Of a DNA stretch of 59,369 bases, positions 47,712 through 54,385 are shown piece by piece. The stretch's first letter is position 1; each line of letters begins with the position of its first letter. Below the pieces are notes generated by a model that saw only the letters and a program-made list of their open reading frames with translations, was not told where the DNA came from and did not search any database. The stretch lies in contig WYBJ01000045.1 of NCBI GenBank assembly GCA_011525945.1, positions 1 to 59,369 on the forward strand, written 5' to 3'. This DNA is from Burkholderiaceae bacterium. Its GTDB lineage: Bacteria; Pseudomonadota; Gammaproteobacteria; Burkholderiales; WYBJ01. The position numbers and the translations under genes are program-made.

Positions 47712-48787
47712 GCGAGGACGACGATATCCGCTCGCTGCTGGTCGATACGGCGCAGCGGATCTTCCGCGATCACTGCTCGCAGCGTACCGTCGAGGCTGCG
47801 AAGCGCGACGGCTGGTCGCCCGAGCTGTGGGAGATCGTACAGCAGGCGCAACTGCCGCTCGTCTCGATTCCCGAGGAAAAGTGCGGCGCCGGCGGCAGTG
47901 TGTCCGACTTGGCCGCGGTGCTGCGCGTTGCCGGCCGCCACAGCGCGCCGCTGCCGCTGGCGGAGACGGGACTGCTGGCCGCTTGGATGCTCGCCGCATC
48001 GGGATTGAATGTGCCGCCGGGACCGCTCGCTGCGGCATTCCAGCGCACCGAGGGCGAACTGCGGCTCGAACCGGTCGCGGATTCCTGGCGCCTCTCGGGT
48101 GAGCTCAAGCGCGTGCCCTGGGCATCGATCGCGAGCCGCCTCGTCGTGCTCGTGCGCGGCGGCGACTGTGACCGGGTCGCAACGGTGGATCCCGGCCGCT
48201 GCACCATAGCGCGAGGCGTCAATCTCGCCTGGGAGCCGCGCGACGACGTGCGCTTCGAGCGCATTGCGCTGCGCGCCGACGAGGTCGTGCATGCAGGCCG
48301 CGGCGTGACGATCGAAGCCTTCTACCGGCGCGGCGCGCTCGCGCGCGCACTGCTCATGGCCGGCGCCCTGGATCGCGCGCTCGAGCGCTCGATCGAGCAT
48401 GCGCGCACGCGCGTGCAGTTCGGGCGCGCGATCGGCCGCTTCCAGGCGATCCAGCAGGAGATCGCACGCTTCGGCGCGGAGGTCGCAGCGGCGGCCGCGG
48501 CGGCGCTATCGGCAGCGGGCGAGGTCGAGCGCGGCGATGGCGAACTCGCGGTCGCTTGCGCGAAGATACGCGTCGGCGAGGCGGCCGCGACGGGCAGCGC
48601 GATTGCGCACCAGATCCATGCCGCCATCGGCGTCACCGAGGAATTCGCATTGCATCACAGCACGCTGCGCCTGCAAGCGTGGCGCTCCGAGTACGGTTCC
48701 GAAACGTACTGGGGCGAGCGCCTTGGACAGCGCATTCTGGACGCGGGCGCCGAGCGCCTGTGGCCCTTGTTGACCGACAGCGCATAA
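47708..48787 (+). CDS. acyl-CoA dehydrogenase (partner, degenerate-type subunit)
   Basis: R.QFGR.IG.FQAIQ and HQIH.AIG.T.E motifs. ATGA overlap with the upstream ACAD. Confidence 0.88.
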   Translation: MSEDDDIRSLLVDTAQRIFRDHCSQRTVEAAKRDGWSPELWEIVQQAQLPLVSIPEEKCGAGGSVSDLAAVLRVAGRHSAPLPLAETGLLAAWMLAASGLNVPPGPLAAAFQRTEGELRLEPVADSWRLSGELKRVPWASIASRLVVLVRGGDCDRVATVDPGRCTIARGVNLAWEPRDDVRFERIALRADEVVHAGRGVTIEAFYRRGALARALLMAGALDRALERSIEHARTRVQFGRAIGRFQAIQQEIARFGAEVAAAAAAALSAAGEVERGDGELAVACAKIRVGEAAATGSAIAHQIHAAIGVTEEFALHHSTLRLQAWRSEYGSETYWGERLGQRILDAGAERLWPLLTDSA

Positions 48788-48818
48788 GCGCCGCCACTGC
48801 GAGAAGGAAGCCGAAGTC

Positions 48819-49823
48819 ATGTCGTGCGATTCACGTCCAACCGCTCGCCGCCGTTGGGTCGGCGCTCTGCTCGCCGCGTCCCTGGCAACGCTGGCCGCTC
48901 CGCTCGCCGCACAAGGCTGGCAACCGACCAAGCCGGTCGAAATCGTCGTTCCATCGGCACCGGGCGGCAGCAACGACAAGACCGCGCGCACGGTGGAGCG
49001 CATCCTGAACGAGAAGCGCCTCGTTCCCACGCCGATCACGATCGTCAACAAGCCGGGCGGCGGTAACGCGCTCGCGATGAACTACCTGGTACAGCATGCC
49101 GGCGACGGTCATTTCCTCATGATCGGCACGCCGACCATCCTCACCAATCACATCGTCGGCCGCAGTAAGCTCACCTACACCGACTTCACACCGATCGCTT
49201 CGCTCTTGAACGACTACATCGCGTTCGGCGTCAACGCCGAGTCTTCGATCAAGTCGGGTACGGAGCTCGTCGAGCGCCTGAGGAAAGATCCCAAGGCCGT
49301 GAGCGTCGGCTTCGCCACGGCGCTCGGCAGCCACAATCACATCGCCGCCGGCCTGCTGATGAAAGCGATCGGCGCGGACGTGCGCAGCATGCGGGCGATC
49401 GCGTTCAAGGGATCGGCCGAGGCCATCACGGCGGTGCTGGGCGGTCACGTCGACCTCGTCACCACCGCTTCGGGCAACGCCGCCACCCATGTCGCCAACG
49501 GCAAGATGCGCGTGCTGGCGATCTGCGCCGAGCAGCGCATGCCGGGCGTGCTGGCCGAGGTGCCGACCTGGAAGGAGCTTGGTGTGCCGCTCGTGTTCGG
49601 CGGCTGGCGCAGCATCATGGGACCTAAGGCCATGCCGGCGGAGCAAGTCGCCTTCTGGGAGAATGCGCTGAAGCAAGTCGTCGCGGCGCCCGAATTCAAG
49701 AAAGACCTGGAGCGCAACTTCTGGTCCGCTGATTTCGCCACCGGTCAACGCATGCGCGATGACCTCAGGAACGAATACGAGGCGATGAAGGCCGTCCTGG
49801 TCGAGCTCGGGCTGGCCAAGTAA
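48819..49823 (+). CDS. Bug/TctC substrate-binding protein
   Basis: W.PTKPVE, PSAPGGSND, NKPGGG and FKG..A.TAVLGGHVD motifs. Confidence 0.92.
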   Translation: MSCDSRPTARRRWVGALLAASLATLAAPLAAQGWQPTKPVEIVVPSAPGGSNDKTARTVERILNEKRLVPTPITIVNKPGGGNALAMNYLVQHAGDGHFLMIGTPTILTNHIVGRSKLTYTDFTPIASLLNDYIAFGVNAESSIKSGTELVERLRKDPKAVSVGFATALGSHNHIAAGLLMKAIGADVRSMRAIAFKGSAEAITAVLGGHVDLVTTASGNAATHVANGKMRVLAICAEQRMPGVLAEVPTWKELGVPLVFGGWRSIMGPKAMPAEQVAFWENALKQVVAAPEFKKDLERNFWSADFATGQRMRDDLRNEYEAMKAVLVELGLAK

Positions 49824-49874
49824 GCGCACCGCGCGGCGCGCGCGGGCGAATCCTCGCGCCGCACCGATCGCGCG

Positions 49875-50417
49875 TTACTGCGCGGATTGCGCCGTCCTTT
49901 GCAACAGTATCGGCACGATCTGGCGCACCGCGATCTGCGCCTTGGCGCGAAGTACCTCGTCGTCATTGTTGGCGACCGGATGATCGATCACCACGAACGG
50001 GTAATCCGGCAAGCCGTTCACCTGCGCCACGACCTGCGCGCTCCTCACGAAGCGATCGGTCATCACGGCAGCCGCCGGGATGCCGAGCCGCTCAGCGGCG
50101 ATGGCGTCGTGCAAACTGCACGACGAGCAACTGCCTCAATCGCCGATGCCGGAGATCAGCGCATCGGCGCCGCTCAACTGCGCCACGATCTCATTCGGCG
50201 CCGGGCGCGTGGCGTCGGACTTGCGCCTGCGAATGAACTCGCGCACGCCATGCTCTGTGCGCAGGATATCTTCGACATGGTCGTAGAAGCGCGCGGTGCC
50301 GATCTTGGCGTTGTCGAGCAGCCCCACGACGGCGTCGCGCAGCGACGCCAGCGCCGGCGCCATTTGCAAGGCTTCGCCCTCGGCCGATTGCCGGGGATCC
50401 AATACCCGTAGCGTCAT
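49875..50417 (-). CDS. UGSC-family selenoprotein (180 aa; Sec encoded by TGA at 50138-50136, codon 94)
   Basis: The frame from ATG 50417 (MTLRVLDP) reads ...SGIGD-TGA-GSCSSCSLHDAIAAERLGIP... and continues to TAA at 49875. SECIS-like hairpin follows. ATGA coupling to the upstream gene. Confidence 0.88.
50105..50138 (-). promoter_or_regulatory. bacterial SECIS-like element
   Basis: mRNA reads UGA-GGCAGUUGCU-CGUCGUGCA-GUU-UGCACGACG: perfect 9-bp stem, GU in the apical loop, loop 19 nt after the UGA. Confidence 0.8.
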
Positions 50418-51466
50418 CGTACGTCTCCTTTCGGTGCGGAAATGGGCGCGGTCACCGCAAGCGATTTCTTGCCGTACCACGGCGGCAGAATCACGCCGAA
50501 TGCGCCAGCGGGTCCGCCCGCCGCGACCACGAGCAGATCGTCCGGCGAGCGCAACGCGCGATAGGTGCGGTCTTCGTCCTTGAGCCCGGCGATCGTGCTC
50601 TTGCCCACCGTACGCCACTCGCGCCGCTGCACATGCGCGGTCTCGTAAATGTACTCCCGGATGCGGCGTTTGTCCCAGCCCGCAGCGCTGAATATCTGGC
50701 GATGCTGTTTGGGCACGACCATGGCATAGTTGCCCTCCCAGATCGAGTACGTCAGCATGTTGGCGCGAATCGCAGCCGCATAGGTGTCGAGCACTTCGGT
50801 CGGATCGTGCGTCCACTCGTTCATGATCTGATGCGGCGACTCGACCGACATCACCGTGACCGCCGACTGCCCGGGCGCAATGCCGCGCTCCTGCGCGAGC
50901 GGCGTCCACGGACTGTCCTCCTCGTCCTCGGCGACACAGAAGGTGAACTTGCCGGGATGACCGAGTGTGGAGCGATCGAGCTGGCCCGGAATGCCGCCGA
51001 GCACGTTCAGCAAGAAGAGCCGGATAGTGCGACCGATGGTCGCGTTGGCGCGGGCTGCGTTGGCGAGCGCGTTGTGGGTCGCGTTCATGCCGAGCGCGAT
51101 GCGGATCGGGCCGTTCACCACGACAAGAGGCGCGCTTCCGCCCGTGCTCGCGGTGCTACCATGCAAACCGAACTGCGGCTCGCACATCGCTTTTACGACC
51201 GCGACCACGACCGGCATGTACTCGGGCAGGCAACCGGCCATGAGCGCGGCGATGGCGAGCTTCTCGGCCGTAATGCGCCGCCGGCGCACGGGCTCGATGC
51301 CGACCACGTCCGCGGCCGCAAGTCCGGCAGCGTCGAGAAAGCGCAGTACGCCCGCCTCGGTCGGCGGCACGATCGGCAATCCGTCGGTCCAGCCGTTGCG
51401 CTGGTAGAGTTCGTTCGCCTCGAAGGCGTCGGTCACTTCGTACGATTCGCTCGTGAGCTTCATCAC
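50414..51466 (-). CDS. conserved hypothetical protein, partner of the UGSC selenoprotein
   Basis: GWTDGLPIVPPT, MAGC.PEY.PVV, RANATIGR, E.EE.SPW and VAAGG motifs. Stop overlaps the UGSC start. Confidence 0.85.
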   Translation of the reverse strand: MMKLTSESYEVTDAFEANELYQRNGWTDGLPIVPPTEAGVLRFLDAAGLAAADVVGIEPVRRRRITAEKLAIAALMAGCLPEYMPVVVAVVKAMCEPQFGLHGSTASTGGSAPLVVVNGPIRIALGMNATHNALANAARANATIGRTIRLFLLNVLGGIPGQLDRSTLGHPGKFTFCVAEDEEDSPWTPLAQERGIAPGQSAVTVMSVESPHQIMNEWTHDPTEVLDTYAAAIRANMLTYSIWEGNYAMVVPKQHRQIFSAAGWDKRRIREYIYETAHVQRREWRTVGKSTIAGLKDEDRTYRALRSPDDLLVVAAGGPAGAFGVILPPWYGKKSLAVTAPISAPKGDVR

Positions 51467-51604
51467 ATCCTTCTCGCTATGCTGTCGCCTCGGTCGAGCG
51501 CAAGCGACCGGTCCGGTCGATCGAGCTTACCGCCGCTCGCGGGTCACGCATAGTGTGCTGCCGCGCAAGCTGTCCGTCGACCGTGTGGCCGGCAATGATG
51601 CCGC

Positions 51605-52813
51605 CTACCAGCAGGCGCGCAGCGTTTCCGCCAGCTCATCGCGATGCTGCAAGAACTCCCGCCCGGGATCGGCGTTGAAGTTCTTCATCGAGTCGGCCAC
51701 GACCGCATCGAGCCCATCGCGCGGCACCCCCAGCTCGCGCAATCGGGCGGGCATGCCCAGATCGGAGAAATAGCGCGCGAGCGCGTCGGCCGCGCCCGCC
51801 GGCGCATCGGCTTCGGCGGCCCCGGCGGGAAAGGCATCGAGTGCGCGCGCGATCGGCACCATTTCGCGCGCGTTGCGGTAGCCGAGCTTGCGCAGGACAT
51901 GCGGGGTGAGGGCGGCGTTCGCTTCGCCCTGGCCGACATCGGGGTAGCGGTTGAAGAGCGCCGTGGCGAACGCATACACCACGCGCATCACCCAGTGGCG
52001 CTCGACGATATTGCCGCCGTCGTCCTGGTCGCGGTTGTGCAGGAAGGCGGCAGCGCACATCTCGATGCGCGGGGCCGCGTCATGCGGATCGACTACGCGC
52101 GCAAGCGCGCGCGCGGCGAGCCGGAATGCCTGCAGCCGGTCACCCTCGACGAGCGGATTCATGGCCGTCGCGCCGAGGTTCATGAGCGAACGCCAATATA
52201 CCGAGAGCGACGATGAACGGGCGAGCGATACCGGCGCCGTCAGCAAGGCCTCGGCGTCCCAGTAGAGGGCTTTCGGGCGCGTCTTCGGATCGAAGAATTC
52301 CAGTCGATGATCGGCATGCGCGTCCTTCACGCCCGATCCGGCCCGGTTCATCGCCGACGTCGCCGTGGTGCAGACGTTGATGATCGGCAGCTTCGGCTGC
52401 AGCAGCTTGATGCTTTGCGCCGGCTGGCCCTCGGGGTACTGCGTGCACAGCTCGTGCGCATCGCCCTTCTCGGCGAGCAGGATCGCGACCACACGCGCCG
52501 CCTGGATCACGCTGCCGCCGCCGACGGCGATCAGCACGTCGGCTTGCGCCGCACGCGCGGCATCGCGTGCGGCCAGTATCGGCCCCAGTGGCGAGTCCTT
52601 CCCCATCTCGTCGTAGACGCCGGCGCACAGCTCGCCCAAGCGGCTGCGCATGCGCTCGATCAGCGCGGTCTTGCGCGCGACCGTGCGCCCGCACAGGATG
52701 AAGGCGCACCTACCACGATTACGCGCCACCTCGGCTTTGATGTTGGCGGCCGCATCCTGACCGCTGTAGAGCCGCACCGGGTAGCTTACCGCGCGAAAGT
52801 CGTACACAGGCAT
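51605..52813 (-). CDS. iron-containing alcohol dehydrogenase / maleylacetate reductase fold protein lacking metal ligands
   Basis: AVGGGS and P..LRELGV fold motifs. Canonical D/H/H/H metal ligands are replaced. Confidence 0.82.
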   Translation of the reverse strand: MPVYDFRAVSYPVRLYSGQDAAANIKAEVARNRGRCAFILCGRTVARKTALIERMRSRLGELCAGVYDEMGKDSPLGPILAARDAARAAQADVLIAVGGGSVIQAARVVAILLAEKGDAHELCTQYPEGQPAQSIKLLQPKLPIINVCTTATSAMNRAGSGVKDAHADHRLEFFDPKTRPKALYWDAEALLTAPVSLARSSSLSVYWRSLMNLGATAMNPLVEGDRLQAFRLAARALARVVDPHDAAPRIEMCAAAFLHNRDQDDGGNIVERHWVMRVVYAFATALFNRYPDVGQGEANAALTPHVLRKLGYRNAREMVPIARALDAFPAGAAEADAPAGAADALARYFSDLGMPARLRELGVPRDGLDAVVADSMKNFNADPGREFLQHRDELAETLRACW

Positions 52814-52933
52814 CACGTCCCTTCGATCGTCGGGCCCGCACGAACTCGTGCCCCGCGCCACCTCCGGCATGTTCTCGCGGCTCGCTTGCATCCGGGTTGC
52901 ATCCGCCCGAATCGATTCTAGCACCGGTCCTCG

Positions 52934-52963
52934 TTGACGCACGCACCGGCGCGCGGAGACAAT
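52934..52963 (+). promoter_or_regulatory. putative sigma70 promoter TTGACG-N18-GACAAT
   Basis: -35 at 52934-52939 and -10 at 52958-52963, 6 nt before ATG 52970. Confidence 0.4.
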
Positions 52964-52969
52964 CGCTGC

Positions 52970-54385
52970 ATGTCAGGTACAACGCTCGCCTGCGCACCGA
53001 CGGCGATGAACGTAGCGCCGGCCGTCGCGCGCTTCGTTACGCAATCGCGGCTCGAGGGCATCGCCGAGCCGGTTGGCGACGAGGCCGTGCGCGCGCTGGT
53101 CGACTGGCTCGGCTGCTGCCTCGGCGGCTGCCTGCAGCCTGGCGTCGACGCGATAGGCGCTACGCGCGACGATGCGCCCGATGGCGGCGAAGCGACATTG
53201 CCCGGGCGAGGCGACCGTGGCGGTCTCGGCTTGACCGCGATGCGCTCGGCGGTCGCCTCGGACGCGCTCGACTATGCCGCAATCCACGCGCCGAGCGGCG
53301 CTGCGGTGAGCGTGCCCATCGTCGCCGCGCTGCTGCCGCTGGCGCAGGCGCGCGCGGCCGCCGGCGCGGACGTCATTCATGCGTTCGTTCTGGGCGCGGA
53401 GCTCACCTGCCGATTGGCGCAGGCGCTGAGCGACGCGGGTCGCTTCGACGATCGCCGCGCGTACGCGGCGTGCGGGCGCATTGGCGCGGTCGTTGCGTGC
53501 GGGAAGTTGCTCGGTCTCGATGCCGCCCGGCTCGAACATGCGATCACGGTGACAGCGAGCGCCGATACCGCTACGGGCCAGGCCGAGGGAGGCGATCGTG
53601 ACGAGCTCGCGTGCAGTGCGCGCCGCGCACTGACTGTCGCATTGCACGCCGAGCGCGCGCCGATTCATTGCTTCGAATCGCCAGCAGGCGAGCCGTGCTT
53701 GTCCGAGCGGCTCGAGGAACCGCAACACGCAGCGGCACTGCTGCAGGGCCTCGGCGAAGAGTGGCATCTGGCCCGCATCGCCTACAAACCCTATCCCTGC
53801 GACAACGCGCTGCACGCGGTCATCGAGGCCGGACTTCGCGTTCGCGCCCTGCACCGTCCGCTCGCGCGTCACGTTGCGCAGATCGAGCTGCACGTTCACC
53901 CCTCGGTGCTCGTGTGTGCGTACACGCAGATTCCCTCCACTGCCGCGCAGGCGCGGCGCTCGCTCGAGCATGCGCTCGCCGTAGCCCTGCTTGACGGGAC
54001 CGCCGGCATCGAACAGTTCACCGATCGGCGCGTGGCGAGCACGCGCGTGGCGCAGTTGCGGCTGCGCATCGAGCTACGCGCCGACGAGCGGCTGCCTGCG
54101 GCAGGCGCGCACGTCCTGCTGCGCACGCTCGATGGGCGCGTGCTGGAGCACGGCGTGCGCTGTGCACGCGGTAATCCGTCGCGCCCGCTCAGCGATTCCG
54201 AGCTGTCGGACAAGTTTCGCGAGCTGGCCGCGGAAGTCATTGCCACCGATCAGGCCGAGCGTCTGCTGGCCCTCACCTGGAACGTGCGCTCGCTCGCCGA
54301 CATCGGTGCGCTGGTGCGCGCGAGCGTTCCGGACGAAGCGCCCGATCCCGCCGAGCTCCCAGGTTCTCCACTGCTTGCGCGTTGA
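52970..54385 (+). CDS. MmgE/PrpD family protein, divergent
   Basis: D.LGC..GG, ALDY, G.E...RL, KPYPC, A..SL...LA and G.P..PLS..EL..KF motifs. Start may be 53006. Confidence 0.82.
   Translation: MSGTTLACAPTAMNVAPAVARFVTQSRLEGIAEPVGDEAVRALVDWLGCCLGGCLQPGVDAIGATRDDAPDGGEATLPGRGDRGGLGLTAMRSAVASDALDYAAIHAPSGAAVSVPIVAALLPLAQARAAAGADVIHAFVLGAELTCRLAQALSDAGRFDDRRAYAACGRIGAVVACGKLLGLDAARLEHAITVTASADTATGQAEGGDRDELACSARRALTVALHAERAPIHCFESPAGEPCLSERLEEPQHAAALLQGLGEEWHLARIAYKPYPCDNALHAVIEAGLRVRALHRPLARHVAQIELHVHPSVLVCAYTQIPSTAAQARRSLEHALAVALLDGTAGIEQFTDRRVASTRVAQLRLRIELRADERLPAAGAHVLLRTLDGRVLEHGVRCARGNPSRPLSDSELSDKFRELAAEVIATDQAERLLALTWNVRSLADIGALVRASVPDEAPDPAELPGSPLLAR

Follow-up and report, generated by a model that had tools for sequence, protein, structure and literature searches.

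The stretch of DNA examined here (the window) is the 59,369-nt contig WYBJ01000045.1 from the assembly of a Burkholderiaceae bacterium, and the subject of this report is a group of three genes at positions 49875-52813, all on the minus strand and read in the same direction. According to their open reading frames, they encode a protein with the fold of iron-containing alcohol dehydrogenases (Fe-ADH), a protein without a family name that we call the partner, and a selenoprotein of the UGSC family that presumably reads an in-frame TGA as selenocysteine (Sec). The features of the locus, including a hairpin that resembles a Sec insertion sequence (SECIS), are as follows.

49875-50417, minus strand: UGSC-family selenoprotein gene, 180 aa, with U94 in GIGD-U-GSC and a TAA stop.
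50136-50138, minus strand: in-frame TGA, the putative Sec codon (U94), the one TGA in the UGSC frame.
50106-50124, minus strand: SECIS-like hairpin with an 8-bp stem and a GUU loop, beginning 14 nt after the U of UGA.
50414-51466, minus strand: partner gene, 350 aa from the GTG at 51466 or 349 aa from the ATG at 51463, with no Pfam or NCBIfam family.
50414-50417, minus strand: ATGA overlap of the partner TGA stop and the UGSC ATG start, by sequence reading.
51467-51604, minus strand: spacer between the ADH and partner genes, 138 bp, or 141 bp with the partner start at ATG 51463.
51605-52813, minus strand: Fe-ADH-superfamily gene, 402 aa, with GGGS kept and four metal-ligand positions replaced.

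The initial annotation had taken these genes for one Sec-dependent redox module in which the partner and UGSC form a two-subunit reductase and the ADH-fold protein may supply electrons. Its gene layout holds: the genes are all on the minus strand, with the boundaries listed above, the claimed translational coupling of partner and UGSC has its counterpart in the ATGA overlap, and the gap of 138 bp is right for the GTG start. However, the alternative ATG start has, by eye, the better Shine-Dalgarno spacing, and a 349-aa database protein (P0004) is 100% identical to the window partner.

The product of the third gene matches the UGSC profile PF24696 with 177.6 bits (cut-off 25) over profile positions 1-171 of 172 and NF041046 with 130.4 bits (cut-off 125), and by these matches it is a full-length member of the family, with which it shares the U-G-S-C motif, the in-frame TGA and the SECIS hairpin. 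The motif, U94-G-S-C97, stands within GIGD-U-GSC-SSC. The genome to which the window belongs (G000; 5.29 Mb in 339 contigs, 87% complete) encodes 16 UGSC paralogs; the U, G and C columns of the motif are invariant across them, and every one of the 16 loci has a single TGA at the Sec column. The same holds more widely, since one TGA is present in 112 of 114 UGSC matches from 11 genomes of the order. The hairpin after the UGA was followed in an alignment of 15 sequences, comprising 11 of the genome's own paralogs and four orthologs, with five long paralogs that are fused to the partner (see below) excluded. In this alignment 94.2% of the cells are paired and five of the eight pairs are changed on both sides; none of 500 shuffles scored as high, and slid controls were paired in 12-46% of cells. 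The genes selA, selB and selD and the tRNA-Sec are all present in the genome. Taken together, these sequence signals indicate that the Sec reading of the window TGA is more than chance.

Three of the fused paralogs (C20, L018:7292; C119, L019:7286; C175, L020:7286) carry a 6-bp stem with a 6-nt loop in a register that is shorter by one base, in contrast to the 8-bp, 3-nt form of the copies with separate genes, which suggests two SECIS classes inside one family and one genome. The hairpins of two others (C241 and C105) fold differently again. The selD gene (G000 C193:5321-6250) contains one in-frame TGA and encodes a selenoprotein SelD. Genes for tRNA-Sec, a thioredoxin-reductase-like protein and SelB form two diverged clusters (G000 C103:464-4947 and C331:660-3682), with a thioredoxin-reductase-like gene directly adjoining selB. 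The two SelB proteins are 53% identical and the two flavoproteins 43%, the tRNAs are alike at 58 of 94 positions, and selA is found on C103 only. We considered the second selB and tRNA-Sec as a special decoder of the second hairpin class and abandoned this idea as unsupported, because four relatives (the three congeners and G106, which belongs to another family) have one selB each. The second cluster may thus have come in as a contaminant during binning or be an additional copy.

The structure model of the UGSC protein (pLDDT 91.7) is a flavodoxin-like, five-stranded alpha/beta/alpha sandwich with strands alternating with helices, in which U94 is placed after the third strand (86-92) at the N-terminus of helix 95-110. 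Foldseek and VIA-align match the model best to chains of flavodoxin-like, receiver-like and periplasmic-binding-like type (Z up to 10.8); a thioredoxin is absent from the matches that the two programs listed for this predicted structure. The best PDB sequence match was not significant (E = 0.055), and the ESM Atlas contained no named cluster like the UGSC domain. Zhang and Gladyshev introduced UGSC proteins in 2007-2008 as one of the main selenoprotein families of marine and especially non-marine aquatic samples. The family ranks with the most abundant ones of aquatic metagenomes, with 255 sequences from 37 GOS samples (Table 2), and that work calls its fold "likely Trx-like" (PMC2398784); the predicted structure here is flavodoxin-like instead.

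The partner contains the three motifs quoted in the initial annotation, namely GWTDGLPIVPPT at residues 25-36, MAGC at 76-79 and RANATIGR at 139-146. Across the family the conserved motifs are DGLPxxPPT, MAGC, NGP, RANATIGRxxRL and AE(D/N)E, and the conserved polar residues are D28, C79, N118, R146, R149, N154 and E180. The partner has no Pfam or NCBIfam match, and a Pfam search of 25 members at E <= 10 returned nothing meaningful. The family is nevertheless large, with 8465 representatives of 50%-identity clusters at E <= 0.001, of which 2710 pass E <= 1e-30. Each of the best 120 close relatives is nameless or "hypothetical", and the nearest ESM Atlas clusters are either unnamed or auto-named "thioredoxin family" with no Pfam family behind the name. 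The partner model is confident (pLDDT 90.1, pTM 0.91) and has no clear solved relative: the best Foldseek matches reach a TM of about 0.2 (cyclic amide hydrolases and class I fumarate hydratase), and the best VIA-align match (Z 7.7, rmsd 2.9 over 91 residues) is chorismate-mutase/YjgF-like, covers residues 207-334 only and lies under the level that would mean more than a common arrangement. The partner profile found no matches among PDB sequences.

Searches of the window's genome found the partner at 18 places and, with PF24696, the 16 UGSC genes. Seven of the latter (C205, C302, C20, C119, C175, C241 and C105) read through the Sec codon into the partner, giving UGSC-N::partner-C proteins of about 535-630 aa. 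Another eight adjoin a separate partner gene, in partner-first order at five loci (the window, C1, C158, C306 and C126) and in UGSC-first order at three (C155, C180 and C321). The remaining UGSC gene (C126, L017:10560-11216) has no partner beside it; instead, the first 60 residues of the partner, including DGLPVIPAT, are fused in front of it. The 16 pairs have diverged to 26-42% identity, and the three congeneric genomes have at least 19, at least 21 and at least 21 UGSC matches. Among 151 genomes that evenly sample the order, both families occur in the same 11 and neither occurs in the other 140. In a sample of the phylum the partner was found in three of 300 other genomes, and UGSC, searched in those three only, is directly adjacent in all of them. 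Among the best 150 representatives of the partner, 77 are alone and 53 include a whole or partial UGSC; a further seven consist of partners in tandem, and the other 13 are extended in some other way. The 53 UGSC-carrying representatives comprise 34 that start right after the Sec codon, where the gene caller cut them, 14 with a full UGSC-first arrangement, four partner-first proteins cut at the Sec codon and one long multi-domain protein. The partner and UGSC are one functional unit, as the seven fusions, the eight adjacent pairs and the joint presence in 11 of 151 genomes indicate. The neighbourhood and fusion analysis that the initial annotation had proposed as a check thus found the two families co-occurring, adjoining and fused across genomes.

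A few arrangements stand apart from this pattern. At C180 (L013:7583-7590) the UGSC frame stops at a TGA and the partner frame resumes in-frame 3 nt on, an arrangement that could have arisen when a fusion split recently or could mean that this TGA, too, is recoded. Two partner paralogs lack a UGSC gene of their own: one is solitary (C327:7137-8129) and one follows a UGSC::partner fusion (C302:68045-68995). The tandem partner-partner fusions in databases are ~710 aa long.

A fusion of UGSC to a conserved domain named "Unknown_1" had been reported in 2008 (PMC2398784), and this domain is probably the partner. The accessible portions of the UGSC literature, including reviews of 2022 and 2026 that list the family, describe no function and no partner subunit, and a sixteen-fold expansion in one betaproteobacterial genome was not found in them; the papers that full-text searches returned are all surveys, judged by their titles. 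The earlier statement that the pair has no established function thus agrees with the accessible literature up to the 2026 review. What is new here is the sixteen-fold expansion, with seven copies fused; the family itself has long been known and its function unexplained.

To model the complex, we divided P0142, a naturally fused Cys form of 657 aa, into its two domains and used an alignment of 31 natural fusions. The domain complex scores 0.78 against 0.13 for the best of three controls. This mark is reached by 58 of 80 solved complexes and by 2 of 110 mismatched pairs, a calibration that holds roughly for our own alignment, which lies outside it; the score itself expresses how confident the model is. 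Between runs, at least 80% of contacts agree, and the pLDDT of the partner chain is 82 or higher. In this model, the confident contacts on the partner side are the W and the P-P-(T/E) of DGLPxxPPT and the helix before MAGC; those on the UGSC side are the N-terminal strand with its invariant Pro, and the Cys-Gly-Ser at the Sec position is also at the interface. Docking of this segment onto UGSC would account for the conservation of DGLPxxPPT and for the stray copy that stands before the unpartnered UGSC. PDB sequence searches with both profiles returned no solved complex resembling partner and UGSC. Physical docking and the interface are therefore model-supported, and the complex prediction that had been suggested as a further check favours binding, on the distant fusion P0142.

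Longer relatives of the partner point to a likely source of reducing power. Among 83 relatives of 614-2000 aa, 44 carry UGSC, 29 carry a thioredoxin-reductase-like flavoprotein (PF07992 and companions) and ten have no Pfam match, and the one of these ten that was read (P0124) is a tandem partner; CxxC is kept in both of the flavoprotein fusions that were read (2 of 29). Nine of the 13 representatives with other extensions were scanned, and two of these contain Redoxin/AhpC-TSA, one the catalytic chain of ferredoxin:thioredoxin reductase (FTR; PF02943) and one a weak, sub-threshold NifU-like CxxC domain, which is also seen in P0142. That the fused modules are all of the disulfide-relay kind is our main reason for regarding the pair as a reductase that is re-reduced by a dithiol relay, with UGSC as the would-be Se-S disulfide acceptor. 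The pair differs from the known thioredoxin relays in that UGSC is predicted to have a flavodoxin-like fold and the window locus is without such a reductase gene. Because C175 is the only UGSC locus with an adjoining flavoprotein gene, the reductant is assumed to act in trans in this organism. Fusion, strict co-occurrence, the complex model with Sec at the interface and the disulfide-reductase fusions together identify partner and UGSC as one unit and most likely a redox enzyme. Of the two-subunit reductase of the initial annotation, this part is retained, whereas the ADH-fold protein as its electron donor is not (see below).

A precedent for such logic is found in the reductases of glycine, sarcosine and betaine and of D-proline. 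In these systems, which also comprise the proproteins GrdE and PrdA, the small alpha/beta subunit GrdB or PrdB carries Sec, acts together with a larger substrate-binding subunit and receives its reducing equivalents through a thiol relay. UGSC and the partner would share with them the U-x-x-C Sec motif and the division into two subunits. The resemblance, which the initial annotation had drawn, is one of logic and does not extend to family membership: none of the 16 UGSC paralogs matches PF07355 at E <= 10, and the one match to PF09338 (E = 0.05) is at chance level. Likewise, none of 25 partner sequences matches PF09338 at E <= 10, and the partner gives no sign of pyruvoyl-type processing. Structure matches of the UGSC model included no GrdB or PrdB chain, although the membership of such chains in the library was not established. 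By gene content the organisms studied here are not amino-acid fermenters. The motif class of PrdB is given as UxxC in Table 2 of the 2008 work (PMC2398784).

On these grounds we consider it probable that the two proteins of the pair together form a thiol/selenol reductase that draws on a disulfide relay. The partner (349 aa) would be the substrate-binding, catalytic body. UGSC would be the flavodoxin-fold subunit, in which a selenol and a thiol, U94-x-x-C97, make up a redox-active pair where a helix begins. On the partner, DGLPxxPPT and the helix that precedes MAGC would dock against the N-terminal strand of UGSC with its invariant Pro, and because this docking puts Sec at the interface, the active site may be composite. 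The selenol is proposed to attack or reduce a bound small substrate and then to form an Se-S bond with C97, which would be re-reduced by a dithiol relay, namely thioredoxin and thioredoxin reductase in trans here and the fused domains elsewhere. The 16 diverged pairs would then be substrate-specific paralogs of one reductase family in varied catabolic neighbourhoods.

Two other functions would accommodate part of the same evidence. The pair could catalyse a non-redox reaction, for instance as an isomerase, racemase or lyase, with Sec as nucleophile or general base and no external reductant. The position of Sec at a helix N-terminus on a flavodoxin-like domain is a geometry that Cys-dependent racemases also use, the loci lie among organic-acid catabolic genes, and the weak profile matches include hydantoin racemase (E = 1.5, not significant). 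However, redox pairs typically have the U-x-x-C spacing that is invariant here, and the thioredoxin-reductase-like, redoxin and FTR-beta fusions would be superfluous for an isomerase, so we regard this function as unlikely. Alternatively, instead of a set of catabolic enzymes, the pairs could form a general antioxidant or repair system that reduces, for example, hydroperoxides or sulfoxides. This would agree with the assumption, found in two sources, that most prokaryotic selenoproteins are thiol oxidoreductases (PMC2398784, PMC13188914), and the AhpC-TSA/Redoxin and thioredoxin-reductase-like fusions do resemble peroxiredoxin systems. It appears improbable nonetheless: the divergence of the 16 pairs and the at least 19-21 UGSC matches per congener fit substrate diversification better than housekeeping defence, the size, conservation and Arg content of the partner suggest that it has a site for a particular small molecule, and the loci lie among catabolic, not stress, genes.

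The gene upstream of the pair matches the Fe-ADH profile PF00465 with 91.6 bits (cut-off 31.3) and PF25137 with 38.1 bits (cut-off 27), and shares with group III Fe-ADH the GGGS nucleotide motif, G98-G-G-S101, which is conserved in three congeneric orthologs. It differs from that group at four metal-ligand positions: S204, R208, Y280 and Q295, identical in the three orthologs, align with D198, H202, H267 and H281 of 1,3-propanediol oxidoreductase 3bfj, which we take to be its Fe ligands. The description of this protein as metal-less thus agrees with the alignment to 3bfj, in which all four ligand positions are replaced. Its best NCBIfam equivalog scores 84 bits, so far below the cut-off of 500 that no substrate can be named for it.

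In the three-gene scheme the metal-less ADH-fold protein would bind NAD(P)H and hand electrons to the reductase formed by partner and UGSC. In favour of this scheme, the genes share one orientation, and the 138-bp spacer contains no promoter-like or terminator-like site, the scan counts being at the level of shuffled sequence; the combination of a kept GGGS with lost metal ligands is conserved in the three congeners, all of which have an ADH ortholog 1.4-5.5 kb from the pair, although such synteny within one genus is expected by descent. In sludge and wastewater metatranscriptomes, contigs from the RNA libraries of three runs bridge the spacer (X17, 51430-51685; X20, 51238-51650; X11, 50782-52821), and other RNA-library contigs span the TGA and the ATGA junction. 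X17, X18 and X20 leave many bins uncovered, including most of the Bug gene at 48700-49660, and such gaps carry no information because the data are contigs. The bridging contigs do not amount to a single transcript, and the libraries may contain DNA; they hint only weakly that transcription from the ADH gene continues into the pair in this organism and leave room for co-transcription. The distribution of the gene tells against its part in the unit. An ADH-fold gene stands at one of the 16 UGSC loci, and its sole other paralog in the genome (C189) lies away from all of them. In G118, the closest relative, whose partner is 92% identical, a phospholipase A1 gene on the opposite strand (L046:5682-6908) separates the ADH and partner genes; in G067 such a gene (L048:8174-9523) adjoins the partner on the opposite strand, on the side of the ADH gene, which is 4.9 kb off; in G006 the ADH gene is about 5.5 kb off, with sensor kinase and EamA transporter genes in the intervening DNA. 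The phospholipase, of outer-membrane type, is missing at that place in the window, and the ADH gene abuts the pair here because of this. In G106 (partner 76% identical), an ADH gene was not found within 7 kb of the pair, which adjoins instead another UGSC::partner fusion together with genes for TctC, a TauD-family dioxygenase and an aldehyde dehydrogenase. Neither the 83 longer relatives nor the best 150 representatives of the partner include a fusion to ADH. Fe-ADH enzymes, moreover, pass hydride to substrates and not electrons to proteins. With the gene at one locus of 16, split from the pair in congeners, and with the redox fusions of the family being thioredoxin-type, the ADH-fold gene is a locus-specific neighbour, neither a conserved part of the unit nor the family's electron donor, and the three-gene scheme is very improbable.

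The wider surroundings of the locus consist of genes that Pfam names as two TctC/Bug receptors, two acyl-CoA-dehydrogenase-like proteins, MmgE/PrpD, an alpha/beta hydrolase and a D-2-hydroxyacid dehydrogenase, which bears out the neighbour classes given in the initial annotation. An Rfam scan of 49700-53100 returned two sub-threshold sRNA matches and nothing else. DNA nearly identical to the locus is present in activated-sludge, wastewater, bioreactor and aquatic metagenome runs from nine studies, and the window DNA may itself derive from some of these. Across the loci, TctC is the only strongly recurrent neighbour, accounting for 19 of 108 neighbour proteins at 11 of 18 loci, and the next, MmgE/PrpD, reaches three. 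The genome as a whole holds 209 TctC/Bug genes and 26 MmgE/PrpD-like genes in 5.3 Mb. A strong association with Bug receptors, which the gene count had suggested, shrank under a random-span control, in which TctC lies near 8 of 16 UGSC loci against 26.9% of distance-matched random spans (P = 0.04). Of the proposal that Bug proteins import the substrate, the nearby TctC genes thus stand, and the link itself is weak. The UGSC neighbourhoods are varied catabolic loci and no more.

Several of our results weigh against the reading of the pair as a relay-fed reductase. The heterogeneous neighbourhoods of the pairs, with their scattered catabolic enzymes, point to no substrate. A thioredoxin-reductase-like gene adjoins one of the 16 UGSC loci in the genome (C175), and the ADH-partner spacer is the one bridged by the RNA-library contigs described above. 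The modelled pair is a distant fusion whose partner domain is 36% identical to the window partner, and the calibration of its score is approximate, as stated. The role of C79 is left open, because this residue is not among the named interface residues and the paralog C105 has Gly at its position. Finally, that the chemistry is that of a reductase, which way the electrons flow and what class the substrate belongs to are our inferences, and net reduction is itself a prediction.

If the reductase reading is followed further, the pair may represent a new class of thioredoxin-linked selenoenzymes with a composite site and an unseen catalytic fold, radiated to at least 16 substrate-specific paralogs per genome in a wastewater genus of Burkholderiales; we put this forward as a tentative possibility, somewhat short of an even chance. 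The obligate partner, the predicted interface and the thioredoxin-type electron input make the function of UGSC testable. In this group of organisms, 16 to more than 20 diverged pairs form a ready-made panel, whose differing neighbourhoods could be mined for substrates, and the locus is already present in sludge metatranscriptome libraries. If the proposal is true, selenium-dependent reduction would be routine in the organic-acid catabolism of ordinary heterotrophs, beyond the anaerobic amino-acid fermenters.

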